Below are positions 941 through 32,517 of a stretch of DNA of 64,000 nucleotides, piece by piece. Every line of letters begins with the position of its first letter. The first letter of the stretch is position 1. The position numbers and the translations under genes were made by a program. The notes under the pieces were generated by a model, which searched no databases, was not told the DNA's origin, and saw only the letters and a program-made list of their open reading frames with translations. This DNA is from a virus (taxonomy: Duplodnaviria; Caudoviricetes): the IMG/VR virus record IMGVR_UViG_3300037400_002947, positions 32,001 to 96,000 of that record; one strand, written 5' to 3'.

Positions 941-3900
941 TTAGAAAACGCCACGCAGACCCATTTTTCGGAAGGTCTCGCTCATGTCGCGTTTTGTATA
1001 ATCGCATGCCTGCTTCAGGATTTCCTTCAGCCCCGGCAGTGCATCTTTGTCAACGTTGCCGTTGACGGTGAGCAGCGAACCGTAGTTCAGATTGACCGAC
1101 TGTCCGCCGCGCGGTGCTATGTTGCGCAGCACCTGATCAAGATTCATTTTACTCAAATTCCAGAGTGCTTCCGTTTGCGCCTTGGAGAATACGGTGTCAG
1201 AGTCAAGCTGCCTCAAAACACCTTCTTTTGTGATGATTGCTTCGGAGCCGATGCCTTCTTCGTCGGTCAGATACAGACCGCGAGCGTTCCGCGCACCTTT
1301 CGCCGCCTTATGGAGAAACTGAGTATACGCCCAGTACCATGCGCCGTTATACTTAACGTGCGTCCATCCGCCCTTGGTTTGTCCGTCAGTCTCCAGAACA
1401 GTCCCGTTCGCAACCTTTCCCATTTTTGTACCGTTAGGCGAATCCCGAAGGTTGAGGTTGCTACCATCTGTGGTTACCCTCAGCTTATTTCCGGTCGATG
1501 ACGCAGCGGAAGTTGTTGTCGTCTTGGTGACGTTTCCGCCCAACGAGACGATTTTGCTAAGAGTTTTTACACCTGCAATGCCATCCTGAGAAAGACCATA
1601 CTTTTTCTGGAAGTTAATAACAGCAGCCTGTGTCTTTGGACCAAACGCTCCGTCGACAGTAAGACCAGCTCCCATTAACTCGTTGAGCGCCCTCTGAAGA
1701 ACTTTTACATCGTTACCAGAAGAACCGTTTTTAAGATTTTGATTTGTTGTAGAGAATTTATATTTTTTCTCGGTAGTAGTTGTTGTAGTTGTTTGCGCCG
1801 CAGGCTTCGAAGTCGATGTTGTCGTAGAACTCGTAGACGATGACGAAGATGACGATGTCGAAGACGAAGATGACGAAGAACCGTCAGAGCCTACGGACGG
1901 AGCCTTAATGGTCTCGACGTAGTCCTCGACTTTTTCGACGACCTTATCAACATATTTGTCGGTAAGTATTTCAGCCTCACCCTCAGCATTGACAGGACCA
2001 TTCGCACGGTTAGTCTCACTGAGACGTTCCTCTGTAGTTGTTACATCAGAGATGGCATCCTTGTAAGTCTGCACCGCAGCCGTAGCGTTGAGCCACGGAT
2101 TCGTGATGTACTCTTCGAGACTGATGCCAAATACCTGGGTGATTTGGTCGAGCTGTTCGTATGTTGTCGCATACTGTTGCGTTGCAAAGTCAAGAGAAGA
2201 TTGGATGGCGTTCTCTTGGTTGGCGAGAGAGTACTCAAGCGCCTTGGTTGTGGCATCCTGAATCTCTTTGAACTTCTCAAGTTCTTCATCGTAAGTCTGA
2301 GTCACTACTTCATACTCGTGGTCGAGCCGCTGTTCGCGCAGTTCGTCTTCCTTCTTCTGGAGGTCTGCACGAAGCTTCGCCGCTCTAGCCTGAGCAGCCA
2401 TAGTGGTGTCGCCAGACAGCGCCGCAATCTGAGCACGGATGCTGTTGATTTCCGTCGTCTTTTCATTGACGGTCTTAGCCCAGTCGCGTGCCTCTTTCTG
2501 TTTCTTCAAGTCTTCCTTACGCTTGTCGATCAGCTTGGACATCGCCTCGGTCTCGGCGTTTATACCTTCCTTGACGAGACTAATGACAGCGTCGCGGTAC
2601 TTCTTGACTTCGCCGACGGCAGCCATCTGCTGTTCGCGGTAGTCGCGCATCTCTTCATTGTACTGCTTCTGGTTGATTACACCTTTGGCAAGTTCTATGT
2701 CGAGCGTTGCGATTGCGTTGTTGTAGTCCTCAACCTTGCGGCGAGAGTTGCCCATCGCCGAAGCGTAAAGGTCAAGCTGGGTTATTCCGGCTTCGGTAAT
2801 AGAAGCGTTATCACGGAACACCGTCAAATCACCAATGAGGTCGACGGTGCTGTCTATCTGTTTGTTCATGTGCTCAAGGATCGCAACAGCCTCTTTCCAG
2901 TTGCTCCAGTTGACTTCACGAATCAGTTCGTTGATGTTCTTCAGTTCGATTTCGGCTTGAACCATTTCGTCCTGAAGTTTCAGCAAATCTGTCTGAGCCT
3001 GCTTGAGTTCCTGGGAGCCTGCCGCCATTTCGCCGTTGGCAAGCTGTTTCTCCATTTCTTCCTTGAACACTCTATATGCTTTAGTATTATCAGAAATGAT
3101 TTCGTTCTGCCGCGCCGCCATCTCAACCAGCTGTTCGATGCTCTTGACTCCGGTATTCTTCTCATAAAGATCGTTCATGGAAGATGCGAGGTCGTAAGCC
3201 TGCTGTGCGTATTCATTCATCGACTGGAAGTCGTCGAGAATGTCGTCAAGTTTCTGGCGGGAGAGATCGAGTATCTCTTTGTTGAGTTCGCGAATCGTGT
3301 CGGAGCAGGCCAAGGCCTTTTCATCATTTATCTTTAGTCGGTTCGCTACGCCGACCGCAACCTAAGTTGCCTCATGGTTTCCCATGAGATGAGACTATAT
3401 CTTTTACCCATAAATAAAGTCCTTAACAAGTTGTTCGATATTGCCGCCTTCCCAATAAGGGATTCGTAATATCGGTATATTATGTTCCTTACAATAATTG
3501 TTCTTAATTGTGTCATGCTTGACAGTCATTGCGTGATTTCTATTATTAACTTCCTCAAAATGTTGCATGCCGTCAAATTCAATAATTTTATTTTCATTCG
3601 GAAGATAAAAGTCGAACGGCAATTTCCTTTTGTCCCTACAATCATCAAATTTATATTCTCTAATGAACGGTATTGAAATGCTATTAAGACAATCGGATAT
3701 CAGCTTTTCGCCGCGACTAGTCGCCATCGAACAACTCTTGCATTTGTTAACACCCTTCTTTGTATAATTGTAAAACGACGTATGAAACTCATTACCGCAC
3801 GAACATCTTATTCTTAAATTTCGAACATGTGTTCCAGTATAGTCGTCTGGATTAAGAAGGGTATTTCCATTAATTGAATCGACGGTTTTTTTTACTTGGT

Positions 3901-6900
3901 CTGATGACAATCTGAGCTTGTCACCAACAGATTTTCTTCCGCAATAATAACATCCGTGTTCGTGTATCATATTGTCGACGGTTATATTTCGCACTCCATG
4001 TATTGGGCATACATATGAAATTGTAGTTGAACTTTTTAGTGTACAATTTGTTGGAAATAATAATTTATAACCCTTTTTGTTACAAATAGAATCTAACTGT
4101 TTTTTATATAAATTGCTTTGCCTCTCATTTCTTAGCTCATTAGCTTTCTTTGGCGCACAATTTGAGCATGCACACTTCTCGCCGCGAGCAACTGCGCGTG
4201 CAACGGTTCCATATAAAGTAGAATATTCTTTGTAACAATAATCACATTTTACACTTACCGCAGTTCTGCTATATTCTGAAAGATCTTTTGCTTTTATTTG
4301 CACCTCGTCGCCAAAATGAGTAAATTTATATCCAAGGGCTTTTAGTCGAGTTATATTTGAATTGTGCCACTTAACAGTGACCAATTGATTTTCATCAAAA
4401 ATAAAAAGACACCTCCTTTTGGAGATGACTTTAAAATGGGTAATTCACTTTTTCGAATCGCCAATCGCTTGCGATTCTACTCCTATAAGGATAGTCGTTG
4501 AACGTTTCTCTATTCGAGACTTCGCTGCTGATTGCCGACGTATCGTTATTCTTTTTAAACCTTCACGCTTACGCATATTTCATCGTTACGTTGTGGTGAA
4601 TAACGCTTTACGGTTTTCCAGCAATTAAATGAAATTCATTATTACTAAAATAATGGGCATGTTGTAATACCATTCAGTATATTGTTGAATTTGCTCCTTG
4701 AGATTCTCATTCGAAATCATCTCAATGTCTATCGTGCCGTTGCGAACCTTCTTGGCGTATGATTCTGCGAGTCCAACGTCGTTGGCTTCCTGCATGTAGC
4801 GCCAGTACGCTTGCTGATTGTATGTGATATTCTTCTTCGCCTGATCGATGGCGCTGTTGAGTTCTTTAATCTGGTTTGCGTACGTTACCCAGTAGTCGCC
4901 CATGTCTTTGAAGTTGTCAAAGAGTCTGGCGACGCGAGAGAGCAGTACTTCAATCCAGTCTTTTATCTCTTTCTCGATTTCAGACTTAGCGGAGGTTGAG
5001 TTGCCGCCATTTCCAGACGAAGAAGTCTTCGTGGTAGAAGACTTTGTTTTCGCCGTTGTAAATTTTGTGTCGTAGTATTTCCATCGTCCGGACACGCTTG
5101 CATGCGCAGGACCGCCAACCGTACCTTGCGCACGAGCCATTTTTGCATAGCCATGCTGAATATATCCATTCTTTAGAAGCTCTTCGGTCTGCTTAGAGTT
5201 GAAGATTATATCATCCTTCTTGAGCGGATAGCCAATCGTCGGGCGACCGTTATTCGGAATAAACCAGTTACTTCCTCTGACCACCAGCTCGGGGCCGACC
5301 TCGTTGATTAGAGCATTTTCGTCGCGCTTAAGACCCCAGTTGCCGTGACCCTTTGCGAAGGCTGTGCCTTGGGCGTGAGCGGTGCCGTTAGCCTGAGCTG
5401 TTCGAATATTAATAGTTTTTGATGCAACTCTTACTCCTGTGTTTGCAAGTTCTTGTAACTTTCTTACTGCCGTATCTATCTGGCTGAGTCCAGTAACGTT
5501 AATGCCTACTCCAACGGTTCTCCCTGTAACCTGATTGATTGAATTTTTAAGAAGGTTGACATCGTTAGTGCCGATAGCCTTTGCAATGACTTGTACTTTT
5601 CGGTCGTAAACGCCATCCTCAGCCTTCTGTAACGCTAACACTTCTTCCTCGCCAAGCGCTTCAACCAAAATGCGTTTTGCGATTTCTTCTGGAGTTCCTT
5701 CAAATTCACCAAGAATTGTCTGTACTTTGTAGACGTTGGGGTCGGCATTTGCTTCGACGGTAATTTTTGTATGTTCTTCTTTATTATGAACGTCGGTCGT
5801 AGTGTTGTGCACTTCGTTACTTGTAATCTTTGATTCTCTTCGTTCGACGTTCTCCTGTGTTCTGTTTACGGTTTTTTGAGGTTTAATTCGCGCCGCCCCA
5901 AGTTCAACTTTCAGTCCAGAAGATGAGCCGTCAAGACCAAGCTGTTTCATTAACGCTTCTGCGTCGTCTGTTGGCTCAAGACCAAGTTCCTTCTGTATGT
6001 TTTTGTTCGCGAGAAGCAGATCTATAAATTCACGGTCATCGTCGCTCAGAACGACCAGACCGTCATGCTTATTAATAGTTTCTATGTCTTCTTTTAATTT
6101 GCTAAGCGCCGCCTCGTACTGTTTAAACTGGTCGACGGTCAGTGTCCCAGATGTTCCAGGAGCCTCAAGCTCTCCCTTTAAATCAAGACATATCTGAAGT
6201 AATTCGCGAAGTGCTGCCACCTGCGAATCGTCCATGTTGACGGTTGCGGGATCGGCGAGAATGTTTTTAATCGCACTAATCTTTTGTTCCAAATCCGAAA
6301 CGGATCTTACTTTGCTAAGGTCGAACAGTTCTTCTGCGTTGAAATCGCTTGAATAATCGTCGCGACCCTTGCTCGCTTTGTCCCAGTTCTTTTTAGCCTC
6401 GACGGCACGATCACTCATTTCCTTGATTGAGTCAGCCTGTTCGCGCGTCATCCAGGTGAGTTCAGCGCCGTAGTCATTCATCTTTTCGAGAATGGCTTCA
6501 ATCATGTCGACGGACGTATGCATCTTCTTAGCAAGTTCTTCGGTGTCAAGATCGTCGAAAACAATTGCACCATCTTCAAGACTAGCCTCTCCAAGATCTA
6601 CAAGAGCTTTTGCAAAACTGTTGCATCCTTCCTGTCCTTCGGAGAAGAAGTTGCGTAACGTCATGTTTGTGCCATCGATGGCCGTGTCAAGTTCTTTATA
6701 TGCAGATATTACCTGATCAACAGACGCAGTCGAAAGATCCTGCCCAGAGATAAGTTCCGCCAACGCGCGGAATTCGTTTGTGCCGACTAGTCCAGCTTTA
6801 TACAATTCGTCTGCGCGAGAGACCGCTGTCTTCGTGATGTTGTCGTAGATGTCGCCACGTTCTCCGGCGGATTGTGCATCAAGCCATTTCTGGTATGCCG

Positions 6901-9900
6901 ATGTCGCGCCTTCGTAAGCTGTCTTAAGGTAGTCGAGTTCAGAAAGCTGTTTGCGTATATCATCAATTTGACCCTGGGCTTTGCTTCGTGCGGATTCATT
7001 CTGAGCGGTCGCAAGTTGCTTATTCGCTTCCGTAAGTTTCTTTGTCAAATCTTGTTGCTGTTTTAAGAATTTGCTGCGCGTAATTTTATCCTGCTGAGAC
7101 TTGAGTTTGCGGAGCTGCTTCTCATTAAGCTTTACGCCGTTCGCCGTCTTGCGGAAGAGGTCTGCGGGGTTAAATCCTTCGAGGTCTGCGAATGCATTCT
7201 TGATTGTAATGAGGTCGCCTTCGAGCGCTCCGGTTTCCTCGTTGACCGAAAGGCTGAGACCCTTGCCACCTGCTGCCGACGCGAGCGCGGCGTTAACGGA
7301 ATCGAGGGTTGTGAGAGTAGAGCCGATAGATTTCTTAAAATTATTGAATTCGGTGGAGATTGAGTCTCCTACGTCAGCAGCAACAGTTTTAATAGCTCCT
7401 AAATCTTGCGCTATTTTGATAAGTTCTTCATCGGAAAGACCAAGAGCATTTTGCATGTAAAGCAGCTCTCCGGACATTTTTCGTAAATTACCATCAAACG
7501 CCGTAGGATTGTTTATTAGGTTGAGCAAATCAATATCGTCAAAATCGTAATCTTTTAATTCGTCAAACGATTTTTTAAGTATAGTTACTTCGTCAATATA
7601 TGGATTCGTATTTGATGGGTTTTCTGATAATGCGTTTTTGACGTTAAAAATCTTCTCCTCAACTTCATCAACTTGTGAACCTACCTCGGCCAAGCCTATT
7701 TTAATTCCATTGTTATTGGCGAAAGTGTTCAAATCGTTGATGGCACCTTGCATGGTGGCACGCAACGAATCTATCTCTTCTGATTTGCCAGATGTTAACG
7801 CTTCATTGTACTTGTCAACGGCATCGCTAGCAGCATCAAGGACTCCTCTGCCTCCTTTGGAAAGAATCTGCATCTCAACATAGTGATTATACGTGTCGGC
7901 GAGATCTTTATACGAATCAGATATTTTTCCCGTTTGCGCTGACACTTCATTGATAACACTCTCGACGTAAGATGCTTTAGCGACATCTCCGATTTCTTCA
8001 TAGCCAGCCTTAATCTCATATAGCTTTTTTGTAAGAATGTCTGCATTCTCGGCTAGCTTTGAGATGTCTCCACCTTCAACAACGATATTAGACCCAGTGT
8101 CAATATCGCGATAAAAATCCTTGACTATTCCAGTTTCGCGCATTGCTCTTTCCATCTCTTCGGCAAATTCGCGCGTACCATCGTCAGTTATCTGTGGTGC
8201 AATTTGCAATTTGATGTCGTCGTAATTCTTCTCAAAACGCTTTGCAACTTCTTTGTATTCTTTCTTATTTTCTCTTAAATTTGTCCGTGCTTCCTTCTCT
8301 GAAATTTGATCAAGAATCTGAAGCTGTTTATTCAAATCTCCATTTATTAAATCTACGCCTCTGGCTTGAGATCCATATTCATCGGTTATTTTTTGTTGTA
8401 TTGAATATATTTCCTGTTTTATCTGATATCTTTCCGACTCAGAAAGATTTTCAGAATCTAATTGTGCACGTAAATCCGTTAACTGATCGCCATAATCTTT
8501 AAGTGAAATACTTGCAGAATTCCAATCTTCCGCACTAGCCTTAGCGCCTTTGATTAAATCCTCCTTGTAATTCTTGTAAGCGGCATATATCGCACCTCCT
8601 ATAAGAAGAGCAATAGCGCCGCCAGCGAGGACTGGCCCCAAGCCGGACAATATGCCAGAGCCAAGAATACCGCCTACTTTTGGCGCGGCTGAACCAACAG
8701 CAACTGCCGCTCCATTTGCTACCGCCTCTCCGGCCTCTTTACCAATCGCAACGGCAGTACTTTTGTTTATACGTAACAGATTGCCTAATATACTATCTGC
8801 CGTACCTCCTGTTTTATAATCAGTTATTCCTTTTATAAGATTAGCAATAAGACCTTGATTTCCAAGAAACCCCTTCGCAGCATCAATGCCAAGAAACGCA
8901 GTAACGATTGATGTGCCACTCCCAAGCGTTTCTACGATTTTATCTACAATTTGTAAAAACGTATTTGCTGTCTCTATAAGTCCTTTAAGAAGTTCAGAGC
9001 TTAAAAAGTCATTCGCTAATTCTTCAAGACTTGCCCTCGCTCTATCTATGGAATACTGTACTGATTGTGCATAGTTCTCCTGTTCACGAGCGGCCGATCC
9101 GGCAGCGCCCTGTGCAGATTTGTACGCTTTTTCAAGTTGCTGTGTATTGTTTAATACAGCAAAGAGGGCATTGGCCCCACGTTTTCCTGCAAGACTTTCC
9201 GCCAAACTTGCTTGTTCTATATCTGTGAGAGTTTTCCACTCCTTACCTATACCGAGCAGGATTTCATAAATATCCTTGTAAGTATTCTCATCTTCCATAA
9301 TATCAAAGCCAGTGAGCTGTTTTATTAAATCTCTAAGCTTTGATGTAGTCTGTGTAAACTCATCCTCTTCTTCGCCAAGGTCTGCTAACTCTGTCTTAGC
9401 ACCGCGAATTCTAGCGGACATCGTTTTGAATATTGTACCGACAGATTCCGGATTTTGAAGAACTGCATTTGCCGTCGTTACAAGAGCAATCGATTTATTC
9501 AAATCTGTGCCGGAAGCGTTGAATGCTGCGGCAGAACGTTGAAGAGCCTCACCAATTCCTGCCGTATCAATTGCAAAATTATTTGCGACCTCGTTAACCG
9601 AATCAACAACGCGCTCTGCCTGAGAAGCATCAATCTGAAATCCTTGTAACATACTGACTAGAGACTGACTAGCGGTCTCCTGTGTCATATTGTCGCCAAC
9701 GGTTTGATAGAGTTGTGTGACTCTTGCAAGATCCTCGGCCTGATCGATTGAATAGCCAAGTCTAGCCCAATCTGCCGTTGAATTAATAACGTCAGTAATG
9801 GTTGAACCGAGTTCTTGTGCTGTCTCAGATGAGCGTGAAAAACTTTGCTGTATTCGTGTATTCGATGCATCTGAAACTTTCTTTAATTCTGTAAGCGCCG

Positions 9901-12900
9901 AATTCGTCTGGGTGACAGTTTGAGCAAGCTCGCGACCGTAACGGATTATATCTCTGAAACTGAAATATTGGGCAAGGAATTGAGCTGCCTGATTTGTTAA
10001 TGCCGACGAAAACTGATGTTGGAAGCTTTTAATATTTTGCCCGGAATCTTTGATTTCTCCATTGAGGCGAATCCACTCGTTAATAAAATCTTGGAGTTGC
10101 TTCTTGGTAATTGATGAAACACCCTTGGCAGTTCCCTCTTCTCCAACACGGACATCCTCTAAGACACTTCTAAGCTTTTCATAATCAGCCAAGAGCGACC
10201 CAGACAGGCTGCTGCCAGCCATATCTGATTTAACTTTGTTGAGCAGTTTGTCAACTTGTCCAGTAGACGCCATTATATTGTCGGCGTTAGACAGTTTTCC
10301 ACTCTTGAGTTCTTGTTTGATGCCGTCGAGTACATTCTTATACTCGTCGAGTTGCTTTGTGTCCCACGCCTCAGATGCATCGTGGTTTTTTTCTGCATCG
10401 ATAATTTCTTGTAGAGATGTTTTTAAATCTTCGAGATGTTGATTATATTCATCTGAATAGTTGTTTTTGTTTTGAGCAGCATTTATTCGATCATACAATT
10501 CCTTTGCGGAATTCGCTGTCTTTTCGAACTGAGCACCTGCGTCATTCTGCTCTTTTGCAGTTTCTGACACCTGTTGTTTTAATTTAGAAAGACTATCCCT
10601 CAGCTCATCGATGGAATCTTTCGCCTTATCAAAGTTGGCAAATCTATTCTCTAGGTCTTCAATGTCACTTCCGTATATACTGCTTAAATATTCACTGCCA
10701 TTAATCGTTTCTTTTAACTTGTTAAGATTTTTCTTATCTGTCTGAGTTACGCCACGTTTTCTTTTGCCACCAGACTTTTCGCTACTTGACGTCTTACTTC
10801 CATCGTATCCGCCCATTTTATCAAACGCTTCAGCTTCCGCTTTGATATTTGGCAATACATCTTCTATGATTGCGCCAAGATTCACGTTTTCTTCTGTAAC
10901 AAGTTCTTTAGCAGCGGCTGCGTCCAATCCGGCTTCCGCCAAATCCTTAAATGCCTTTGTTTCTGATTCTAATCTTGCGACTGAATACCCGACTTGTGCC
11001 ATTAGCTTTTGGTTGTCTTCGGTGAATAATTCTTTCGCAACAGCCGCATCGAGTGCCGCCTTCTCTATTGAATTAAAAACTTCAGATTCATTGTTAGATA
11101 TTTTGCCGTCGCTTTTTTGTTCAGAAAAGGCATTGGCGGTTGATTGTTCCTTTACATCTTTATTGTTGGCCTTCAGGGCATCAATAACACTTTGTTTTCT
11201 CGCAGATTCTGACTGCCAATATTGATTATCTTCTATGAGCTGATTGTTGTCGTGGGTTAAAGTATCGACGGTCTCTTGTAATTTTCCAAGTTGTTCATCA
11301 TAAAATTTATGATTTTCCCGTATACGTTCGTCGGCCGCCTCCAATTGTTCTTGCAATTCTTCTACCTTGCCCAAAAACGTATCAGATTCGTCAGCCAAGC
11401 CACGGTTTTCATCTTGCAATTGATGAATTTGCTGAACCGCGTCATCATACAACCCAGTTGATTCATCTAGCTTAGCATTAGCATCAGCTAGCTCTTTTTC
11501 TTTAGCCTGAACTTTTTCTAGTAGTTCAGATTCCCTTTGAGATATTTGTTGAGAGGCAGACAGGAAGTCTTTATCGCCCCGTTCGAGAGATTCGGTTGTG
11601 CCAGTACTGGTTTGGCTAACACCATCAATATCTTTATCCGCTTCTTGTAAAAATCGTTGTGCTTCACTTAACGCATTTTGTTTCTGTTCTAATTGTTTAT
11701 AGAACTCCGCCTCTTGCTCTGATACTTGTCGCGCGGATGATACAATATCTGTATTTTCTAAAGATTCAATCCGACCAAGAAATGAATCCATTTGATTTTT
11801 AGACAGATAGGAACCTATATACTCTTTGATTTCAGATGGATCATTAGTGGTGTAATCGCTTGACCTAGTGGCTAGATCAATAAATGAGAAGCCATTTGCT
11901 TTATCGTATAAGACATTATCTCCATTAACATCTACAAACAGTCCTGAATCAGATAATATTTTTATATCGCTTATAAGCTTCTTTATTTGTTCATCAGTTG
12001 CATCCAGAAAATCAAGATTGTCTTGGCCAATGATTTCTCCCTTCGCCGTTTCCTGTATCTCGTAAACAAGACCATTGGCTTCGTCTTTTATCGTTCCGAC
12101 AATACGAGCAACATTTGCGCCTGCTTCCGCAGCTTTGTCAAGCGCCGGGATAAGACTCTGAGTTTTAGCTTCATATTCTAAATCTCTTGCTATGAGCGTG
12201 TAGTCGTCACCTACAAAACCGCCACGATTTGAATAACCATCAGTTATTTCTTTCGCAGTAATTTTACCCTCTTTTAAAAATCCAAGTCTCTCTAAAAGAT
12301 GTTGACCATCTACGGTAGAAGCAATAGACTCTATGCCTTCAACGCCATTTCCAACGTCAGCAATTGCATCAATAAACTTTTTAAAATCATTTATAAAATC
12401 TGACGTTTCATCTTTAACATTCTCAGCTTCCTTTTGAGCTACTTGTACCTTCGTTTTTGCAACATTAATATTCTCAATTGCTTCTTCAATCTCTGGAACT
12501 TCAACAGATTCACTTAAAGATTTAAGCTTTAAATCCTTATTGATTGATTTATGGTCGAAAGTTTTTTGAGATGATTTTGTTTGAATGTCGGTTAATATTT
12601 TATATAATTCAGTTTTCGTGATATCCTGTGGGTACGGATCGTCTTCCGGTGTGAAATCGACCATTAAGCTCTCAATAATGTTTTTGGGATTTTCGGCTTT
12701 TTTACGAAGTATTTTTTCAAATACGGCCCTATAAACAGATTTGGCTAATTCTTCGTTTTTTTTACTATCATTTATTAATCCAAAATCTACAATGGGTGTG
12801 TTTTTCAAATTGTTTAGCCAATCGTATACTACACTTCCCAACATGGTGGAATCACCAGGATTACCAGCGTAGCCAGCGCTAATGCCGTTCAAGCCAAGCT

Positions 12901-14311
12901 GTTTGAAAAAGTCGGTTGAAAAGCTTTCTCTATTTCTTAATTTATTTCTTGCCGTTTCTAATGTGTCGGTTTTATCCAGAATTGAGTCAAGTTCATTTTG
13001 CTTATTTGTAATAAACTCTGAAAACTCTTCTCTTGTAACTTTTAGCCGATTCATTATATTTGAATAATCGGTATAAACATGCTCTATTTGTTCTTCTAAA
13101 CTCAAGTTATTATAGCCAGTAACCTGATCAATATTTCTAAAATTCCTCGAAAATACAAGCTGATTAATTGTAGCAGATAAATCATTAAGGCGGGTAAGTT
13201 CGCCAGTGCTAATTGCATTGTACATATTTTGCACTTTACCCAAATCGGTCATATACAGTCTTTTGGGTTTTCCGTTTCCACCACCGCCTAATGTGCCACC
13301 CCAGTTACCGTCAAGTAAATCATTTAACATTTGTGTAAAATATAAGCCACTACCGAGAGATATGTTTTCACCTATCATATCTCCCATATTGTCTGGAATT
13401 ACATACTCGCTAGATTTTACAACACTGTCTGAAATATCTCCGAGGTGCCAATTGGGAAATTCCATTTTTTCGGCAAGTTCGGTTATTTTCGCCACAAGAG
13501 AATCAAAATCTTTTTCTGCATCATATATCTCTTCGTGTAGACCGTCAAATATTCTTACCTTAGATATACTCTCTAATGATTCTGAGGTCTCTCCAATGCC
13601 TTCATCGACAGTAGCTAAAGATTTTGAAACCGTCTCAGCTGTTTTAGAAATGGTGTTATCAATACCCTTGCCGTCGTTGGAAAGCTTTTTTAAAATTTCA
13701 GAAACGCTGTCTTTGTTTGTTTCTAATTTATTTTTTTTGTTTTCTAATTCAGTGAAATAATCATAATTTTCAGTATATGATTTCTGAAGACTCTTTTTAA
13801 ATTTATCCTGAATATCTTCTAATTTATCTGCGACATTATTCCCTAAATCCTTGCCATATTCTTCAGAGAATGAATTTGATATATTCTTGAGATGTTTAAA
13901 TTTTTCAAATAACACCGACTCATCGATGCCGTCTTTAAAACCTTGATTTATTTCGTCTATGCCAGTTTGGACATAATTTGTTAATGGATTTTTTCCTGCA
14001 ATATTAGCTTCATCAAACGCCTTGCCTAGTACCGATGCTATGTCGTTTATTTCACTATCAATGTTTTTGTATAATGCAGAAAAGATTAGATGTTGTAATT
14101 GCTTCTCAAGGGTTTTGTCTCCTCCAACAACATTTCTGATTCCATCAATAATGTCATCTGATAAATCAGCAAAATTTAAATCAAAATTTAGACCAATTCG
14201 ATTGTTTTCTATATTTTCCGCAACTTGATTAATATACTTTTCTGCATCTTTGGCGGTTTTTATTACTTGTTTATTTTCGCCCAAAATTCGAACTATAAAG
14301 TCTTTAATCAT
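941..14311 (-). CDS. Tape measure protein, ~4008 aa, split by a group I intron: join(14311..4669, 3324..941)
   Basis: TP901-type TMP core (ALTELKKVS..LGSTITDVINSTADWARLGYS..NEVANNFA) at ~9.0-9.95 kb; splicing gives ...TEW-Y-EKALAC in frame (12027 nt = 4009 codons); C-terminal PG-binding (~1560-1740) and SH3b (~1310-1485) domains after a Ser/Thr linker. Confidence 0.9.
3325..4668 (-). mobile_element. Group I intron (1344 nt) in the tape measure gene
   Basis: P AAUUGCUGGAAA (4615-4626), Q AAUCAGCAG (4525-4533), R GUUCAACGACUA (4492-4503), S AAGAUAUAGUCU (3392-3403); P1 GGU|AU pairs with AUGCC giving U.G at the splice site; terminal G at 3325. Confidence 0.92.
3404..4402 (-). CDS. Intron-encoded homing endonuclease, Zn-ribbon repeats plus Vsr-like/EDxHD nuclease domain
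   Basis: Several CxxC motifs; C-terminal LPFDFYLP..IIEFDGMQHF..HD..K..IPILRIPYW; lies between intron R and S elements; start either TTG 4384 or ATT 4402. Confidence 0.85.
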   Translation of the reverse strand: MFDENQLVTVKWHNSNITRLKALGYKFTHFGDEVQIKAKDLSEYSRTAVSVKCDYCYKEYSTLYGTVARAVARGEKCACSNCAPKKANELRNERQSNLYKKQLDSICNKKGYKLLFPTNCTLKSSTTISYVCPIHGVRNITVDNMIHEHGCYYCGRKSVGDKLRLSSDQVKKTVDSINGNTLLNPDDYTGTHVRNLRIRCSCGNEFHTSFYNYTKKGVNKCKSCSMATSRGEKLISDCLNSISIPFIREYKFDDCRDKRKLPFDFYLPNENKIIEFDGMQHFEEVNNRNHAMTVKHDTIKNNYCKEHNIPILRIPYWEGGNIEQLVKDFIYG

Positions 14312-14330
14312 CTTTTATATCACCCCAATA

Positions 14331-14355
14331 AAAAAAGACCGCTATGCGGTCTTTT
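14331..14355 (-). terminator. Rho-independent terminator-like hairpin
   Basis: AAAAGACCGC-ATA-GCGGTCTTTT followed by further Ts on the minus strand. Confidence 0.65.
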
Positions 14356-14377
14356 ACGAATGTGTTAAGTGCTTTGT

Positions 14378-14695
14378 TTACTTACAATATCTTTTACAGA
14401 TATTTATACGCTCAGACATTAAATCGGCGCGGTATATAGAATATGTGTGTTTATTATCTGAAATTCTACTTGGTATTCCGCCGGTGTAAGAAACTACCTT
14501 AAAGGATTCAACCTGTTCTACTTCACATTTATTATTTTTTATGATTTCGTTTGCCGGAAATTCATTAATCATATCATTCGTAAAAACAGAATTATAATAA
14601 CCATCTGGCAACAACATTATTGTATGATTATTTTTTACGCTAACATATCTTTTTATACCATCGCTACAATTTACAGCTATTCTATAATAATTCAT
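14378..14695 (-). CDS. Hypothetical protein (AT-rich, moron-like)
   Basis: 105-aa ORF with GGGGA RBS, followed by a terminator. Confidence 0.6.
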   Translation of the reverse strand: MNYYRIAVNCSDGIKRYVSVKNNHTIMLLPDGYYNSVFTNDMINEFPANEIIKNNKCEVEQVESFKVVSYTGGIPSRISDNKHTYSIYRADLMSERINICKRYCK

Positions 14696-14710
14696 TATAT
14701 CCCCCTATAA

Positions 14711-15292
14711 TTATAATTGATATTTTTCCCATTCTTTTTCTAATAACGTAGGAACAGTCTTTGCAATTTCGTTGTATTTTGTTTTCAGTATCTTTTCTGG
14801 AGAAGGTTTCATTTGTTTAGGCGCTTTATAAGCACCAACGTGGTAACGTTCATCTTTGTTTTTACCATAATTATAACTCATAATTTCGCTCTTTGTATAC
14901 CCGTGTATACCGCTTGAAAATGATCTTTCAAAAATTTCAGCCTTAACAGGAATAAGACCGTGGGGGGGTCTTTTAATATACGGATCACCGGGTATAAACA
15001 TGGCATCGACAAATATTCCTGCGGTATAACAGTTCGTTTTTTCCTGTTTGTAATATGTTTCAAACCCTCCAACGCCCATCACACCCTTAAATAAGCTGTA
15101 TGTTCTTCTATAACTACTTAGCCCTTTTTTATTTTTTGAACGTGATTTAAGAGGATAGTCTTTATAGAATTTCTGAATTGAAGTTTTGTACGCTTCGCCG
15201 AGTTTTATACCAACATCATTCGCAACATGTTTTATCATTTGGTTGGTTGTTATAACAAGATTTTCAACATTTAAATCTATTTTCTTAGCCAT
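14711..15292 (-). CDS. Hypothetical tail-region protein
   Basis: ORF; start moved to MAKKIDL after GGAGA RBS. Confidence 0.6.
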   Translation of the reverse strand: MAKKIDLNVENLVITTNQMIKHVANDVGIKLGEAYKTSIQKFYKDYPLKSRSKNKKGLSSYRRTYSLFKGVMGVGGFETYYKQEKTNCYTAGIFVDAMFIPGDPYIKRPPHGLIPVKAEIFERSFSSGIHGYTKSEIMSYNYGKNKDERYHVGAYKAPKQMKPSPEKILKTKYNEIAKTVPTLLEKEWEKYQL

Positions 15293-15314
15293 ATTTTCAT
15301 TATCTCCAAAAACA

Positions 15315-15347
15315 AAAAAAAGCGCCCTCGCATAAAGCAAGGACGCC
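15315..15347 (-). terminator. Terminator-like hairpin after the tRNA-Ser locus
   Basis: GGCGTCCTTGC-TTTAT-GCGAGGGCGC followed by a T-run. Confidence 0.6.
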
Positions 15348-15511
15348 TCATAAAAAATCAAATTCAGTATCCAGTTGCTTTAAGCAATGTTATAATTAAT
15401 AAGTAACCCCTAGACATTCCTGATAGGATTATCAATTAATAATAACATTGCTTTAAATAGTTCTGTAGCTAACACAGAACAAAGAGGTCGCGTTGCAGCG
15501 CCGCCTCTTAA

Positions 15512-15596
15512 CGCGGCATAGAGGATTCGAACCTCTGCGCCGTTTCCGACGTCTGGTTTTCAAGACCAGTGCCTTCGACCGCTCGGCCAATGCCGC
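15512..15596 (-). tRNA. tRNA-Ser (UGA)
   Basis: Acceptor GCGGCAT/ATGCCGC, anticodon stem CTGGT/ACCAG with loop CTTGAAA, long variable arm, GGTTCGAATCC T-arm, G73; CCA not encoded. Confidence 0.92.
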
Positions 15597-15641
15597 AAAC
15601 ACTCGGATCGCCATATTAATTACGACCCAAGCCCATCACTT

Positions 15642-16133
15642 TTATTGTTCGGTATGTTGTTCGGCCATTGAGGCAATGACCTCTCCAAGAACTGCTTCGA
15701 GAGACGCCAACTTCATCTCGAAAAACGACGTTAAGTCTCGTGTGTTACTAATCTCATCATCGAGGCTCATATTGACAATCGTTTGAAACTCATCAACGTC
15801 TTTTCCGACGGCTGCGAGAATATACTCAACGACGCCAGCTTCATTAAGAATATCGAATTCGTCGGTGACTTCTTCTGTATTTATTTCAATGTCCGTATAA
15901 TACTGAATCACGGTTACAATAAAAAGAAGATAACGAGTAGGAGAGGAGACTTTAAACATCTCTGTTCCGTCGTCGTTTTTAGCATATGTAGACGACCTCA
16001 CAATTCGTGCGGCGTTGCTCATTTTCATTGCATATGGCATATAAGTCTCCTTAACGTGTTTGGAAACAAACCGCTGTTTGTCGGTCGATTTTTCAAATTG
16101 CTCTGCAAAATTCTTAACTTTCATCTTATTCAT
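15642..16133 (-). CDS. Hypothetical protein, possible tail assembly chaperone
   Basis: Acidic helical ORF between tail tube and TMP. Confidence 0.5.
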   Translation of the reverse strand: MNKMKVKNFAEQFEKSTDKQRFVSKHVKETYMPYAMKMSNAARIVRSSTYAKNDDGTEMFKVSSPTRYLLFIVTVIQYYTDIEINTEEVTDEFDILNEAGVVEYILAAVGKDVDEFQTIVNMSLDDEISNTRDLTSFFEMKLASLEAVLGEVIASMAEQHTEQ

Positions 16134-16603
16134 TCTCCATATCTATTTACCATTGCGTCGCCAATACAAATTGAATCAGCAACATCATCATTAACTTCAA
16201 CGTTATATTTTTCTTTAACATATTCTACGCTTGCAGCCTTTAACTCGGCGCGTTTCTTCTTGCCTTGCTCTAATCCACAATATTTGCGCCAGACAGACGG
16301 CGGAATTTCCTCGTAATAGGAATTATTGCGAATACACCAACCGCGAACAATTCCAAGAATCTCAGACAGCTTGCGAACGAGTTCAACATTTCTACCATCG
16401 CCACGGGGAGACTCGATATAAACAGCGGCGGGAGACCAGTCATCAAGATGGTGCAGCATTTCTTTACCCATCATGCTTATCCGAACGTCTGTTTCTTCCT
16501 TGCTGTTAGACAGGTCGACGAGCGTAAAGTTGTGTAATACACCGTCCACAAAAAGTGTCATTCCAGTTTTCTTGGTTGACGAATCAATTGATACCATTCT
16601 CAT
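16130..16603 (-). CDS. RuvC-like Holliday junction resolvase
   Basis: SIDSSTKKTG, VYIE, PPSVWRK and DDVADSICIG RNase H-fold motifs. Confidence 0.8.
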   Translation of the reverse strand: MRMVSIDSSTKKTGMTLFVDGVLHNFTLVDLSNSKEETDVRISMMGKEMLHHLDDWSPAAVYIESPRGDGRNVELVRKLSEILGIVRGWCIRNNSYYEEIPPSVWRKYCGLEQGKKKRAELKAASVEYVKEKYNVEVNDDVADSICIGDAMVNRYGE

Positions 16604-16608
16604 TTTGG

Positions 16609-16878
16609 TTATTCCTCATCATCAAGAAAGCTGTATGTCAAATCAAACGGGACAATCTCATACACCGTCAAATCTTCAGGGTTGTGTTCCCTATATTGTT
16701 GGTACAATACTTCAGCAGATATTTTATTTAAAGTTTTGCTTGCCTTACGAATGTCGTCTGTCAGATAAAAGTTATTCTTTTTTATAGGGTCGAGAGTTAA
16801 AAACATTGGCAGTCCATTTATTGGGGTTGCCAATGCATAGCGCGTCTCGCTTGCAACTTCAATTTTTCTCATTGTCAT
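16609..16878 (-). CDS. Hypothetical protein
   Basis: Tightly packed ORF in the operon. Confidence 0.6.
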   Translation of the reverse strand: MTMRKIEVASETRYALATPINGLPMFLTLDPIKKNNFYLTDDIRKASKTLNKISAEVLYQQYREHNPEDLTVYEIVPFDLTYSFLDDEE

Positions 16879-16881
16879 CCC

Positions 16882-17112
16882 TCATTTCAACATATGTTTG
16901 CACCAGAGATCGTATAACTCGGTGGTATCTTTCCTATTAAAAATGTACACAAGCAGTGGCTCATCAGTCCTAAAATCTTTACCAGGATATATATCAAGCA
17001 ACTCAGCGCCATGAGACATATACGCCGCCGACTGCTTATAATTAATAATACGCACCACCTCAGAAGGATTATACGACTTGCCTGTAGTGGCGCTCATTAT
17101 CGTGTCTTTCAT
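16882..17112 (-). CDS. Small conserved phage protein (DUF5659-like)
   Basis: I.NYKQ..AY...G..L.D.Y....LVYIF...T..LY..W pattern; GGAGGAG RBS. Confidence 0.55.
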   Translation of the reverse strand: MKDTIMSATTGKSYNPSEVVRIINYKQSAAYMSHGAELLDIYPGKDFRTDEPLLVYIFNRKDTTELYDLWCKHMLK

Positions 17113-17202
17113 TATTCTCCTCCAAATATATGAGAGCAAAAAAAGGGGCATGATTACAAGTAATAGCAATCATACCCCTTAGGTAAAAAATCAAATTCAC
17201 TA

Positions 17203-17508
17203 TTACTTTTTATTATTATTGTTGTTCTTTTTTTCTTCAACCGCAGGTTTTGTGAAAAGTTCGCGCACAATCTTTTTAAATCCGGCATCCTGAACAATCG
17301 ATTTTGTCGGATCGAGATGCGAGAGCTTAGACCTTGCCTGATCAGCGGAAATCTGTTCCGCCTTATATGCATTAAGGACGCCATAGATATCCTTACACGT
17401 TTTTGTATCAAACAGGAATTTCCAACGCGGTTCGTTGTCATATGCGGAACAGTTAGGGCAATATTCATAAGCCTTGCCGCAAATGACACATGTTCTTTCA
17501 TTTCTCAT
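17203..17508 (-). CDS. Zn-ribbon hypothetical protein
   Basis: CVICGKAYEYCPNC; AGGAG RBS; terminator hairpin at ~17135-17180. Confidence 0.7.
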   Translation of the reverse strand: MRNERTCVICGKAYEYCPNCSAYDNEPRWKFLFDTKTCKDIYGVLNAYKAEQISADQARSKLSHLDPTKSIVQDAGFKKIVRELFTKPAVEEKKNNNNNKK

Positions 17509-17570
17509 TGGTTTCTCCTATTGACGGGGCAAGCACCGTTAAAGCGCTTGCCCAGATTGTTAAGCTTCTA

Positions 17571-18692
17571 TTAAGCAGTTTCCTCTTCATCGTCAGCGCA
17601 GACATAAATCTCATAGAGGACTTTGTCGGTACCGCAGTAAGAGGTCTGAAGACGTCCGGTAAAGTCGATGGTGGAGTCAGTGGACAGACCAATCGACAGC
17701 TCCGGAGACGGCTGGAAGTTCGGCAGCACCACATAGGCCGCGCGGACAATATCACTTTCGCAGGGCAGTTTGTTATCGTATGGCTTTTTATCCATACTTC
17801 TACATCATTACAATGTAGTTCAGCATATCTTTTTATCATGAGATTCTGCATCTCATTCCATCCGATAGCGATGACTCGTGGGAAGATTATATTCTGATAC
17901 ATCTCAATATCAGTTTCACTTCCTATGCGTTGTGCGTGTCACAATTATTACATTGAGACTTCCGCTCTGATTGCCGTTGCAAACGGTTTTCCAGATTTTT
18001 TCATCACTAATAATCCATGGCTACATGATGGATTCACCATGGACGACCCGCAGTATAATTACGCATTTATTACATTATGCTGCTTGATCGACGATGAGGA
18101 CTTTAAGCGTAAGCTTAACAGATTTCGGGAACGCATCAGATCTGTTAACAATCTTGACGCCGTTCTCGGTAACGTTACGGTCATACTTAATAATCCACTT
18201 CGTGTCGCCAGTACGAGCAGTAATTCTCATAGTAGACGGATTAGATCCACTTCCGGCAGTAACCGTGTATTCACTTGCGGAATACTTGTCGCCAAGCGTA
18301 CCATTCGCTTCAACCGCATTAACAACGATGTGCGCTTCTGCGCCGTCATCATTGATGCCCGGGAGCGAGATGCCAGTTGTCTTAGCGACCATAAGGATAC
18401 GCGGCATAGAAATAGCGGCAGAAACAGACGCATACTGCGCGTCCGTACCACTCATTGCACCGATAATCGGAAGGTTGATTGTAGAGTTAGTCGCCGTGAA
18501 CTCGCCAGTCTTAGCGCGGTAGAACGTCTTGATGACAGCGCCTGTACCGTCAACGGCTTCCTGCGTATCGGCAGTAATATCAATAGTTGCTTCCTGAAGG
18601 TTGGTCAGAGTATAGAGCAGTTCGCCCCTAGAGTTCTCAGCCACACCAGTAACGATTCTATCAACAATCAGGTCACCCAGTTTAAAGGCCAT
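17571..18692 (-). CDS. Major tail (tube) protein, 266 aa, split by an intron: join(18692..18087, 17765..17571)
   Basis: Splicing joins ...KVLIVD to PCESDIVRAAYVVLPNFQPSPE in frame; position between neck genes and TMP. Confidence 0.8.
17766..18086 (-). mobile_element. ORF-less group I intron (321 nt) in the tail tube gene
   Basis: P1 CGAU| pairs with GUCG (U.G); AAAUCUGGAAA and AAUCAGAGC P/Q elements; P7 CAACGCAUA / AAGAUAUGCUG; terminal G at 17766; removal restores the frame. Confidence 0.88.
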
Positions 18693-18721
18693 AACTATTT
18701 TTCTCCTTTTCTTAGAAATAA

Positions 18722-19549
18722 TTAATTTAACGCTCGCATAAAATCAAATTGTTCTTTTGGAACTTTTGAAACATCGCAGAATCCTGAGTTCGCTCCAGTA
18801 AGCAGTGCACGAGTCGACTCATATACCTGAAGTCTCTTTACGCTGTCCATGAATTCGTTTATCCTAATCTCGCGAAGTTCACGAGATTTGTATTTAAATC
18901 CAGGATGGTTAACGCATGCCGATATAAGCGGTTGCAACATCGAAACTGGCTTGCCACCATTTTCTTTTTCGGCTTGCGCTATTTTATTGCGCTCCTCTTC
19001 AATTAAGAGTTCCTTGCTTGTTTTGCCGACTGTGTACTCTGCTTTCGGGAAAATCTGGACCATCTCACGCATCACCGACACAAGTGTGTAATAAACATCT
19101 GCTGAGATCTCGATGTCCTGCTCTTTGTTATAAAAAGACCATGACTTCTCAAATGCTTCAAACAGCTTCTTACGCTTTTCGGTCGCCGTTGGTTTTTTGC
19201 CGTCTTTTGGCGGTTCTTCTTCAGGCGGCTCATAACCAGTCGGTATGAGTTCAAATCCCTCAAAATTAATGTCGCCAAAAAGAATGCGTGTTTTTTCGAT
19301 TGGCAACATTCGAACAAGATTACAAAAGAGTTCGTAATCGCTTACCTTGTTCCAATCGACGCCAATTTCCCAAAGAAATAATCTGCGATATGTACTATTA
19401 CCAATAAACATATACAGTACGGCCCAGAATTCATTCTCGCCGTACTGTATAATTTCATCTATGCTAGGTTGATATAAAGTAATTTTATCAGTGATTGGAT
19501 ATGGATCTCCGAAATAGATTTTTAAAAGATCGACTGAATTACCACTCAT
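18722..19549 (-). CDS. Conserved tail-region protein
   Basis: 275-aa ORF in the structural operon. Confidence 0.65.
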   Translation of the reverse strand: MSGNSVDLLKIYFGDPYPITDKITLYQPSIDEIIQYGENEFWAVLYMFIGNSTYRRLFLWEIGVDWNKVSDYELFCNLVRMLPIEKTRILFGDINFEGFELIPTGYEPPEEEPPKDGKKPTATEKRKKLFEAFEKSWSFYNKEQDIEISADVYYTLVSVMREMVQIFPKAEYTVGKTSKELLIEEERNKIAQAEKENGGKPVSMLQPLISACVNHPGFKYKSRELREIRINEFMDSVKRLQVYESTRALLTGANSGFCDVSKVPKEQFDFMRALN

Positions 19550-20138
19550 GAGAATTGTTCATCATGCCATGCCGGAAGTTGTTGGTATTTGTTGCACGTA
19601 TTAGAAATCTAATAGTGCGAGAGTAATACTTTGTATCCGTAATACCAAACTCGTCGGAATACAGCTTCATACTTATTCCTGCTTTATTGCTCCAGCACAG
19701 CAAATCCTTAACAATATATGCCAGAAGGTCAATGCGATCAATTCCATATTCAGTATCCATATCATCCTCGTGAACAAGGCACATCACAGTGAGATACTGA
19801 TTTTTTATCATCTCACTCGTATACGATGGACGCTCGTCACCTATGTCAAACATCACAAAATTCACAACTTCCTTTTGGATGTCGTTAACTTTCAGAAACG
19901 ATAGTATCTGCGGATGAGACACTTTCTCGTTGTACTCTAATATCCGCGCTCGTTCTTTTAATTCATCCTCTGTCGGGTTCGACTTATCCGCAAACTTATT
20001 AAGCGGAAGAGGAGCTTGCTGTCCGAGTACTTCTTTTAAATCTGGATCAGCATTTAATATTTCTTTTATCTTTTGCTTCTTATAAATAATGTCATTGTTC
20101 TTGACGTCGTCAAGAATCCTTTGTATGTCGATGCTCAT
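19539..20138 (-). CDS. Putative tail terminator/neck protein
   Basis: Position upstream of tail tube; RIDLLAYIV motif. Confidence 0.55.
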   Translation of the reverse strand: MSIDIQRILDDVKNNDIIYKKQKIKEILNADPDLKEVLGQQAPLPLNKFADKSNPTEDELKERARILEYNEKVSHPQILSFLKVNDIQKEVVNFVMFDIGDERPSYTSEMIKNQYLTVMCLVHEDDMDTEYGIDRIDLLAYIVKDLLCWSNKAGISMKLYSDEFGITDTKYYSRTIRFLIRATNTNNFRHGMMNNSHEW

Positions 20139-22744
20139 GATGCCACCTCCAATATTTTTGCGGAGGAGTAATTACCGTTTACATCGCTTACGGACAGTTC
20201 AAATTGTTTCCCTTTAAGCTTATTGGATTTACCAAGCCTAATCGCAATAGTTGAAGCATTGACAGTGCTCATTGTAATGAGACGCTCAATCGTAATACGC
20301 TCATCTTCGGAATAGTCTCCAACGAGAGTAATTCTCCACTGTCGGTCAACCGAGTCGTCAGAAAACCAAGCCCAATAGTAATAAGTTTGACCTATAGAGA
20401 TTGTATTTGATTGATCGGTGTTCTTTTCAAGCTCACCGTCAGCATTAACAATCATATTGCGTATGAAACTACGATTGTCTTCAATTGAACCATCCGGATT
20501 GACCGCAGGCTGCGGCGTTGCAATGTCTCCGCTAGGAGTGTAGTAATCACATATTCGAAGTTCTACGTTGTCTCTGTCTGGATTAAAGTCGTCTGCCTTC
20601 ATCGAAACCTTGATAATTCCAGGCGGGAACATATCAAGAACTTTTGAAACCATATAGCAGTTTGGATTTAAGTCATTATTGGTCACCATCAGTCGGAGCT
20701 GAATGTCTATAGTGCGAGTATCGCTCAGTTCGTATTCAGAAATTTTATCTCCAAATAAATAATGCGTGTCCGGTATCCAGCATCCTGACAGGTTGTCAAG
20801 ACCTGTGGTGTAAAAATCGTTCCAGACGCCCTGTTGTGTTACTTATATGGTCGCAAATCATATAAGATTATTATGCGGCGCAGTTATAAAAGTGCTTTTT
20901 ATATAACGCATATTTTCTTTTAATAAACATATCAGAATCTTTATACATCCAATCTAACAGTTTTTTACATTGATTATTGCCACAAATCGAAATGATCTTG
21001 GTAACGCCATTGTGATTTGAAGCATCGTAAATATTACCACCAATAAAAATATTTTCCCTGATTATTCGAAGGGCTTCTTCACAAAAATCTTTCGTCGACG
21101 TAAACGTTATGAGGCTATTTGGCTTCCATCCCTTTTTATTTGAGTATTCTGAAAGACTTCCATCGCCATCAAAATATCCCCTAATAAAATGTCTGTGTAA
21201 TTCGTTAGGTAAAAATGAGGGATACGAAAGTACGAGACTTTTGTTCCTAACAACGCCTAAATTAGACAACGTATTACACATATGTTTACTATAAAGATCT
21301 AAAGAATACATATTTTTTGAAACATATCCATTGCCATATAACCTTCTAGAACAATCTACGAACGTCAACGGCTTGTTACTGTTAAGCTCTTCGTTGATCT
21401 CCAATAAAATATCGACATCACAATCTTGTAATTGCAATCTTACGGTTGACTTGTCGGGGCAATTATAGCCATCAGCATAAAGTAACCCTAAAATATATGC
21501 TTTTCTAGGAGTATCAATTACGTCAAAATAGTTCTCATTGAGCGTATATTTTCTTACAGACTTATGAGACCTCTTAATGTCATATTCATTTAATACATTT
21601 TCGATGCATTTCCTATTAATACGGTATCGGTCTGCAAGTTTAGGACACGACAATCCGGCGACGTATAGTTCACAAATATCCAACTTTTCATCTTCTGTAA
21701 GAATCCTCGTCGGAATTATTCCGTCAACATTTTTATAAACATCGCTCCATGCTATTCCGGTTATTTCAGATATTTCTTTTATTGAAAGACCACTGTTAAA
21801 AAGATTAATATATTCTGATTTGTCTAATAACTGCATAACAATTCTCCCTAAAAAATTGTATTTTAAAAAGACCATAATCTCCTCGTTAGGGCTTAGAGAA
21901 ATGGGAGCTACCCACTGTCTGGTCTTTTGATTACCACAATATAATTTTCTTACGCTTTCACGTAAGCACTGACTATATCATTCACCGTAGCAATTTCTTG
22001 CCGTAGGAGTCCTGCACTTCGGGACGCTTGTCCCTAACGGTATTTCAACCGATAGTCGATGAGGCCAGCCCTATTCGGACTTTGCCTGCTGATTGCCCAA
22101 TCCTTACATTTTTAACTCTCCATCTTGGCTTATTTCATCCATATGTTTTAGCTGTAAGGCTCTAAGGGTGTCCCAGCATATACGCAGGAATACACTGCAA
22201 TGTTTCCAAATGCAGCGAGCCGTGCAATATACTTTCGCATATCACAACTTGTGTACGAATTCGCATTTCTCGCAATACACCAACAATTTAAAATCCTCTT
22301 TTGGTCGCCATATCCGACGACCCACTTCAGATTCCAGTTACATCTTAATACCAGATATCTGACGAACTGCTTTGCATCGTTTCGTCCAACAATGAGCCAG
22401 AGATTCTTGGTATCACCTTCAAATGGGTGCTCCTCATTAATGTCCAAATCAAAGTCGGTATCATCTGGAATGAACACATAAGTGCCAATCGGATAATGTT
22501 CCTTTGGTCTGAACTGAAGATAAGAATCAACCTCGTCCTTAACAATAGAAGCAGCAGAGTGCTTTGAATAATGAGCGTCGGTATATTTCCATCCCTTTTG
22601 CGGATCAAGAATATACACGCGCTTATATCCAACATCGCCAAGAAACGTCGCATTCATAAGTTTGTCAGACTGGTTTTTTCGAACTTCGGATAAGTTTCTT
22701 CCTTTGGATTTGAGATAGGAGGAGTATGTGCCAAAATCAATCAT
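20135..22744 (-). CDS. Putative head-closure/neck protein, 397 aa, split by an intron: join(22744..22247, 20830..20135)
   Basis: Splicing joins RNANSYTS to GVWNDFYTT; frame open from 20830 into ORF 20135..20689. Confidence 0.8.
20831..22246 (-). mobile_element. Group I intron (1416 nt) with a LAGLIDADG gene in the P9 region
   Basis: P1 AGU|UGUG..GAAA..CACGGCU with U.G; Q AAUCAGCAGG (22085-22094); R CAUCGACUAU (22052-22061); S AUGAUAUAGUCA (21970-21981); terminal G at 20831. Confidence 0.92.
20871..21836 (-). CDS. LAGLIDADG homing endonuclease with N-terminal HTH repeats
   Basis: YILGLLYADGY and FIRGYFDGDGS motifs; ATG at 21836 after GGGAGA. Confidence 0.9.
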   Translation of the reverse strand: MQLLDKSEYINLFNSGLSIKEISEITGIAWSDVYKNVDGIIPTRILTEDEKLDICELYVAGLSCPKLADRYRINRKCIENVLNEYDIKRSHKSVRKYTLNENYFDVIDTPRKAYILGLLYADGYNCPDKSTVRLQLQDCDVDILLEINEELNSNKPLTFVDCSRRLYGNGYVSKNMYSLDLYSKHMCNTLSNLGVVRNKSLVLSYPSFLPNELHRHFIRGYFDGDGSLSEYSNKKGWKPNSLITFTSTKDFCEEALRIIRENIFIGGNIYDASNHNGVTKIISICGNNQCKKLLDWMYKDSDMFIKRKYALYKKHFYNCAA

Positions 22745-32491: not shown

Positions 32492-32517
32492 ATCATCTTT
32501 CTCCTTTTCTTTCCAAT

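Follow-up and report, generated by a model that had tools for sequence, protein, structure and literature searches.

Comparative evidence for three group I introns in tail-module genes of an uncultured phage

The late virion genes of an uncultured phage, represented by a stretch of 64,000 nucleotides (nt) (the window; bases 32001-96000 of the 118,998-base IMG/VR virus record IMGVR_UViG_3300037400_002947), carry inserts in the tape measure gene (intron 1, 3325-4668), the tail tube gene (intron 2, 17766-18086) and a gene for a virion protein of 397 amino acids (aa), here called the neck gene (intron 3, 20831-22246). As far as DNA sequence can tell, comparison with relatives confirmed three separate group I introns with exact junctions. 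These are very probably genuine self-splicing and mobile introns, selfish passengers of late virion genes that efficient splicing would make harmless. The exon junctions, the RNA structures, the families of the intron-encoded open reading frames (ORFs) and the presence/absence polymorphism were established directly, and from these we infer catalysis, homing and neutrality. The relatives were public viral contigs; a search with the tube gene gave 16 related loci (L numbers), and G numbers denote the relatives' genomes. Relatives of the neck gene were reached via records holding tube homologues. Neck exon 1 used as a query against the viral contigs gave no match, nor did tube exon 1 in a tblastn search of the GenBank phage collection.

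Exon junctions in the tape measure, tube and neck genes

All three interrupted genes and the ORFs within their introns lie on the minus strand. Each intron is preceded by a U and ends in a G (at 3325, 17766 and 20831), and exact excision of the three intervals leaves uninterrupted ORFs of 4008, 266 and 397 aa, as a sequence-only reading of this DNA had proposed. The predicted ligated junctions on the minus strand, with a slash at the junction, are GAATGGT/ATGAAAAG (tape measure), GTCGAT/CCCTGC (tube) and ACAAGT/GGCGTC (neck). Read through, the genes meet an in-frame stop 14, 3 and 32 codons past the 5' splice sites of introns 1, 2 and 3, respectively. The ORF table bears out the earlier lengths of the unspliced frames, namely 3228 aa (4625..14311, with the stop at 4625), 205 aa (18075..18692) and 198 aa (22148..22744), and downstream of each truncated frame lies an open frame without a good start. 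From the truncated frames we infer, soundly and as the sequence-only reading did, that each full-length protein could be produced only from spliced mRNA. Such early in-frame stops past the 5' splice site are typical of phage and prophage introns (PMC2504315).

Joining 14311..4669 (exon 1, 3214 codons plus 1 nt) to 3324..941 (exon 2, 2 nt plus 794 codons including the stop) splits a Tyr codon as T/AT and yields the 4008-aa product. Its assignment as a tape measure protein is solid: exon 1 matches phrog_4211 ('tail length tape measure protein', 5e-65) and PF10145 (2e-24; 87 bits against a cut-off of 33.2), exon 2 contributes a peptidoglycan-binding domain (PG_binding_1) and an SH3-like domain at the end of the protein, and the gene lies downstream of the tube gene, as expected of a tape measure. 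Over the 400 residues around the junction, the spliced product aligned without a gap at the junction to the single 2798-3061-aa ORFs of G001, G004 and G005. The window reads QQYTEW-Y-EKALA at this point, compared with NEYKTYYEKALA in G004, QEYQNYYNKAVA in G005 and QEYMDLYDKA in G001, and the relatives' motif is YYEKALA, YYNKAVA or LYDKA. Were the next possible 3' G used instead, three bases further on in the downstream direction, a TAA would arise, and the junction originally proposed is therefore the sole workable one. The spliced product is about 1000 aa longer than those of the relatives. Tail length scales at roughly 0.15 nm per tape measure residue; with 4008 residues this rule implies a very long tail.

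In the tube gene, 18692..18087 (exon 1, 202 codons) joined to 17765..17571 (exon 2, 64 codons plus the stop) gives the 266-aa ORF, and the two exons were exactly contiguous and in the same frame in six related contigs (L019, L007, L012, L015, L011 and L014; tblastn). Exon 1 matches phrog_2729 (virion structural protein, 2e-7). The fold was taken from an AlphaFold model of the intronless L019 homologue (pLDDT 69.6), for which the ten best Foldseek matches all came from phage tails. Seven were tail tube chains, and the others were the YSD1 major tail protein and chains from reconstructions of the JBD30 baseplate and the Chi neck. E-values went down to 9e-6, and TM-scores were low (~0.26). By the modelled fold of this homologue, the 266-aa product matches a siphophage tail tube protein. 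The tube family also has a precomputed Pfam label (PF27173), which is absent from the Pfam copy used here; our Pfam scan gave no family for either the tube or the neck protein, and PDB sequence searches with these two returned nothing useful.

The neck gene is restored by joining 22744..22247 (exon 1, 166 codons; phrog_5251, 3.6e-13) to 20830..20135 (exon 2, 231 codons plus the stop). Its exons were adjacent to the base in G001, G002 and G004; in G003 and G005, 1469 nt are inserted at the identical codon boundary. The model of the 397-aa protein (pLDDT 80.8) has a C-terminal Ig-like domain, and its N-terminal part resembles lambda gpV (Z 8.5) and the 114-residue lambda neck chain 8k37_M (Z 7.5), both in the range of a common arrangement. 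The earlier label of a neck gene is therefore loosely right: the model predicts a virion protein with a tail-tube/FII-like fold and an Ig-like domain in place of a named connector, Z values of 7.5-8.5 being too low to name its role.

Intronless alleles of all three genes were thus recovered, six for the tube gene and three for the neck gene, together with the colinear single tape measure ORFs of G001, G004 and G005. They bear directly on whether the inserts are introns at all, as opposed to natively split genes, inteins, group II introns or programmed frameshifts. Nothing beyond the interrupted ORFs themselves speaks for this set of readings, to which we give almost no credence. The homologues are single ORFs in which the two parts are adjacent to the base, not genes natively in two pieces. 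Inteins were rejected because the inserts hold in-frame stops and the LAGLIDADG ORF of intron 3 is out of frame with its exon 1, group II introns because of the group I matches described below and because no reverse transcriptase ORF turned up, and a programmed frameshift because the inserts measure 321-1416 nt.

Ribozyme structures and intron-encoded ORFs

The most extensive structural comparison was that of intron 2, which at 321 nt holds no ORF. It is 84% and 81% identical to insertions of 320 and 323 nt in the tube genes of L004 (G001) and L018, respectively. A hand-drawn structure of 12 helices (P1-P2-P3-P4-P5-P6-P7-P7.1-P7.2-P3'-P8-P7'-P9-P9.1) was scored on the alignment of these three sequences. 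In this structure 97.1% of cells were paired, compared with 30-45% in slid registers, and 19 of the 70 pairs were compensatory, with both sides changed, a value matched by none of 500 shuffles. RNAalifold independently gave P1 with its U.G, the P1 extension, P2-P6, P7.1, P7.2, P8 and P9. All three sequences have the U.G at the 5' splice site, and the P1 pair next to it changes together with the exon (A-U versus G-C). P7, which the sequence-only reading had noted in each intron, is likewise invariant in intron 2; it fits the structure and lies beyond the reach of the covariation test. Helices 8 and 9 (P7.1/P7.2, between P7 and P3') contain one and three compensatory pairs, and assign intron 2, an IA-like intron, to subgroup IA, as in classical phage introns. 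The introns of T4 td, nrdB and nrdD and of the SPO1 DNA polymerase gene belong to subgroup IA2, with P7.1/P7.2, endonuclease ORFs looped out of the core and spread by homing. The introns described here resemble them in these features, P7.1/P7.2 being seen in intron 2 and homing being probable; theirs lie in nucleotide-metabolism and replication genes and those described here in tail genes.

Introns 1 and 3 were recognised by RF00028 (Intron_gpI), to which their P3-P9 core aligns in sequence and structure over the full model, with the P7 strands AAGAUAUAGUC and GACUA included. Intron 1 (1344 nt) matched in two pieces, the first at 4383-4676 (P1 to P7/P3') and the second at 3371-3515, where the hallmark AAGAUAUAGUC forms J8/7-P7' and is accompanied by P9. 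These pieces flank an ORF, which therefore lies in the P8 region. Intron 3 (1416 nt) contains the full ribozyme core at 21949-22256, with its ORF in a 3' extension (E 5e-9 in a local search of 1.7 kb). Intron 3 is 77% identical to the same-site intron of G003 and G005, and comparison with the G003 copy showed P2, P3, P6, P9 and peripheral hairpins that stay paired through double changes. The window and L027 both retain the splice-site U.G, and the adjacent pair switches from U.G to U-A. The cores of introns 1 and 3 are weakly similar to each other and intron 2 represents a separate lineage. A DNA search of the 119-kb record found no further copy of these intron families.

The ORF of intron 3 (20871..21875, 334 aa) encodes a predicted LAGLIDADG homing endonuclease with an N-terminal helix-turn-helix (HTH), matching PF14528 (LAGLIDADG_3) at 33.5 bits (cut-off 22.5) and the endonuclease family phrog_4645 (1e-59). 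Two LAGLIDADG motifs, LLYADGY and YFDGDGS, can be read in its sequence. The ORF of intron 1 (3404..4384, 326 aa) matches phrog_559 ('HNH endonuclease', 5e-52), phrog_9084 ('homing endonuclease', 8e-31) and phrog_7140 ('intron encoded nuclease', 5e-18). Against Pfam it gave weak matches with none above cut-off, and a PDB sequence search returned no relative. Its translation shows Cys-rich repeats and a C-terminal FDF...IEFDG..H motif. We describe it as homing-endonuclease-like from its sequence; HNH, PD-(D/E)xK and EDxHD are all candidates for its catalytic family.

Several observations weigh against the reading as three genuine group I introns. Splicing itself is predicted from the DNA sequence. 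The gathering score of RF00028, an operational cut-off of 50 bits, exceeds the scores of both intron 1 (47.3 and 30.5 bits) and intron 3 (42.3 bits); large insertions depress such scores. Intron 2 did not match Rfam even in a permissive scan. Rfam at its gathering threshold reported no intron in the window because all RF00028 scores there fall below 50 bits. A U.G P1, seen in each intron by the sequence-only reading, is borne out by comparison in introns 2 and 3; in intron 1 it is plausible from a thermodynamic minimum free energy (MFE) fold, where the last exon U pairs with G in a P1 containing one bulged C. Finally, the record is a metagenome assembly with an estimated completeness of 72%, which bears on whether the phage is viable. 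The sub-threshold scores and the incomplete metagenomic record could also be taken to mean that at least one intron no longer splices, which would leave its gene broken in a genome that is itself defective or wrongly assembled. We consider this very unlikely, as the intact exons align over their entire length with homologues (45-69% identity), the ribozyme helices keep their pairing via compensatory changes, and related introns occur in several independent contigs, some of them rated 96-100% complete.

Intron distribution among relatives and mobility

The introns are polymorphic across the clade, and close relatives commonly have each of the three genes in intronless form. In the tube gene the interruptions fall at four sites: after residue 64 (L004 and L018), after residue 202 (the window only), after residue 211 (L005, L006, L008, L009, L010, L016, L013 and L017) and at about residue 240 (L013 and L017), such that L013 and L017 each hold two interruptions within one tube gene. 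The site-211 family sits at LRA/VYIV, and RF00028 scored 38.2 bits in L006 and 37.6 and 36.9 bits in L013, where the second insert (4097-4432) was included. The tape measure gene of G003 has a group I intron elsewhere in the gene (L035 2114-2507; RF00028, 50.7 bits), which is 75% identical to the core of intron 1. The insertion sites in the window fall in the most conserved motifs of the three proteins (tube L-x-V-D/P-C, neck R-N-A-N-S-Y-T-S/G-V-W, tape measure YEKA). In public protein sets, dozens of 211-220-aa tube fragments at 87-97% identity were found alongside 237-aa neck fragments (public protein clusters P0019-P0078 and P0199/P0206/P0207). These fragments are most likely unrecognised intron-bearing alleles that appear as truncated gene calls.

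Sporadic presence, sites at conserved codons and two endonuclease ORFs together form the signature of selfish homing elements and not of gating. The sequence-only reading had suggested that splicing gates or sets the ratio of tail components, but nothing emerged in favour of that claim and sister phages dispense with each intron. A regulatory role, in which the phage would use the splicing efficiency of three ribozymes to control when, or in what amounts, tape measure, tube and neck proteins are made, draws on the location of all three introns in one late tail module, on the need of the full-length products for splicing and on the precedent of Clostridioides difficile, where a domesticated group I intron serves as a regulator (PMC3984707). 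Yet uninterrupted genes yield the same proteins in close relatives, the relatives' introns sit at other positions (tube 64, 211 and ~240, and another tape measure site), no sensor or aptamer element was seen in the introns, and the endonuclease ORFs with their conserved-motif targets account for the positions without any function. We therefore regard such a role as improbable. The same review views group I introns as benign selfish elements (PMC3984707).

Under the selfish-element reading, each pre-mRNA would fold into a P1-P9 core, exogenous guanosine would attack after the U of the P1 U.G pair and the terminal G would then direct exon ligation, restoring the frames of the 4008-aa tape measure, the 266-aa tail tube and the 397-aa tube-fold/Ig virion protein. 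The putative endonucleases of intron 1 (unclassified family) and intron 3 (LAGLIDADG) would cut intronless alleles in co-infecting relatives, and repair of the cut allele would copy the intron in. Occupied and empty alleles at identical sites may exist because of such endonuclease-driven homing during co-infection. The ORF-less intron 2 would depend on other routes, and splicing would render all three near-neutral.

How intron 2 might have travelled is suggested by its relatives at L004 2681-3000 and L018 1011-1333. These copies are inserted after Gly64 of the tube protein, as opposed to Asp202 in the window, and remain 81-84% identical to the window copy over nearly the whole length. The flanks are unrelated, reading AAGCAAGGT/GAATTT and AAAACTGGT/ACCCTT at site 64 and ATCGTCGAT/CCCTGC at site 202. 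The guide differs where it pairs with exon base -2 (GCCG with GGU at site 64, GUCG with GAU at site 202). A changed guide and unrelated flanks are what transposition mediated by reverse splicing predicts, and it is possible, if doubtful, that intron 2 moved between tube codons by reverse splicing at the RNA level. The same outcome would result from an endonuclease acting in trans, or from illegitimate recombination with later adaptation of the guide. Further members of the family were sought by a pattern scan, which gave only the L004 and L018 contigs, and by DNA searches of five relatives and of the record itself, which revealed no additional full copies. If reverse splicing were responsible, intron 2 would be a natural and recent case of a group I intron transposing to an ectopic site in a phage, and the clade's tube gene, which has four alternative intron sites, would be a good system in which to study such events. 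One intron at two sites with a matching guide change offers a usable natural experiment on the means by which introns lacking an ORF arrive at new sites.

Known systems and genomic setting

Group I introns in phage tail genes were described in 2008, and the window adds a further case of a known type that will not surprise a specialist. In prophages of the Bacillus cereus group, such introns occupy three positions of the tape measure gene (TMP-IVS1/2/3) and one in the tail tube gene, with others in terminase genes (Tourasse and Kolsto 2008, PMC2504315); an intron-sequence match is also annotated to the tape measure gene of Lactobacillus phage JCL1032 (PMC2504315). In view of these cases, the statement in the sequence-only reading that a tape measure intron is especially unusual does not hold. 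Both systems have group I introns in siphophage-type tape measure and tube genes, at several alternative positions per gene and with or without endonuclease genes, and in both the introns have in-frame, early stop codons and a sporadic distribution. Unlike those prophages, the phage lineage of the window is uncultured and metagenome-derived, its host genes differ (the 4008-aa tape measure) and three tail-module genes are interrupted in one genome.

Spliced introns are also present in the capsid and minor tail genes of Cluster J mycobacteriophages (LittleE capsid, BAKA/Optimus minor tail; Pope et al. 2013, PMC3706429), and the same paper cites a capsid intron in Tuc2009. Terminase introns are common. 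The Cluster J introns resemble those in the window in that they lie in virion structural genes, where RT-PCR confirmed them, in that one has an endonuclease ORF and one does not, and in that two different genes share a related intron segment (PMC3706429). Unlike the phage of the window, Cluster J comprises high-GC actinophages in which other genes are interrupted and the intron type was tentatively assigned. The general picture of phage introns is unchanged. What the window offers is good documentation of several group I introns together in one uncultured phage's tail module, within a clade whose introns repeatedly target the tail tube gene, the tape measure gene and a virion gene nearby. Annotation is affected as well: gene callers split such genes, and Rfam at its default threshold misses all three of the window's introns.

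The genomes of close relatives measure about 145-160 kb. Down the coordinates of the window, head genes in the late module are followed by the neck gene (from 22744) and, after two small ORFs, by the tube gene (from 18692), beyond which several small ORFs and a tRNA-Ser precede the giant tape measure gene (from 14311). This tRNA-Ser(UGA) occupies 15511-15597 on the minus strand. A second tRNA-like gene at 32517-32595 (minus strand; Rfam, 31.4 bits) has an irregular anticodon loop and was not assignable by ARAGORN. The window also encodes a full-length ROOL RNA (RF03087) at 33879-34494 on the minus strand, scoring 308.6 bits against a gathering score of 99.1 bits.

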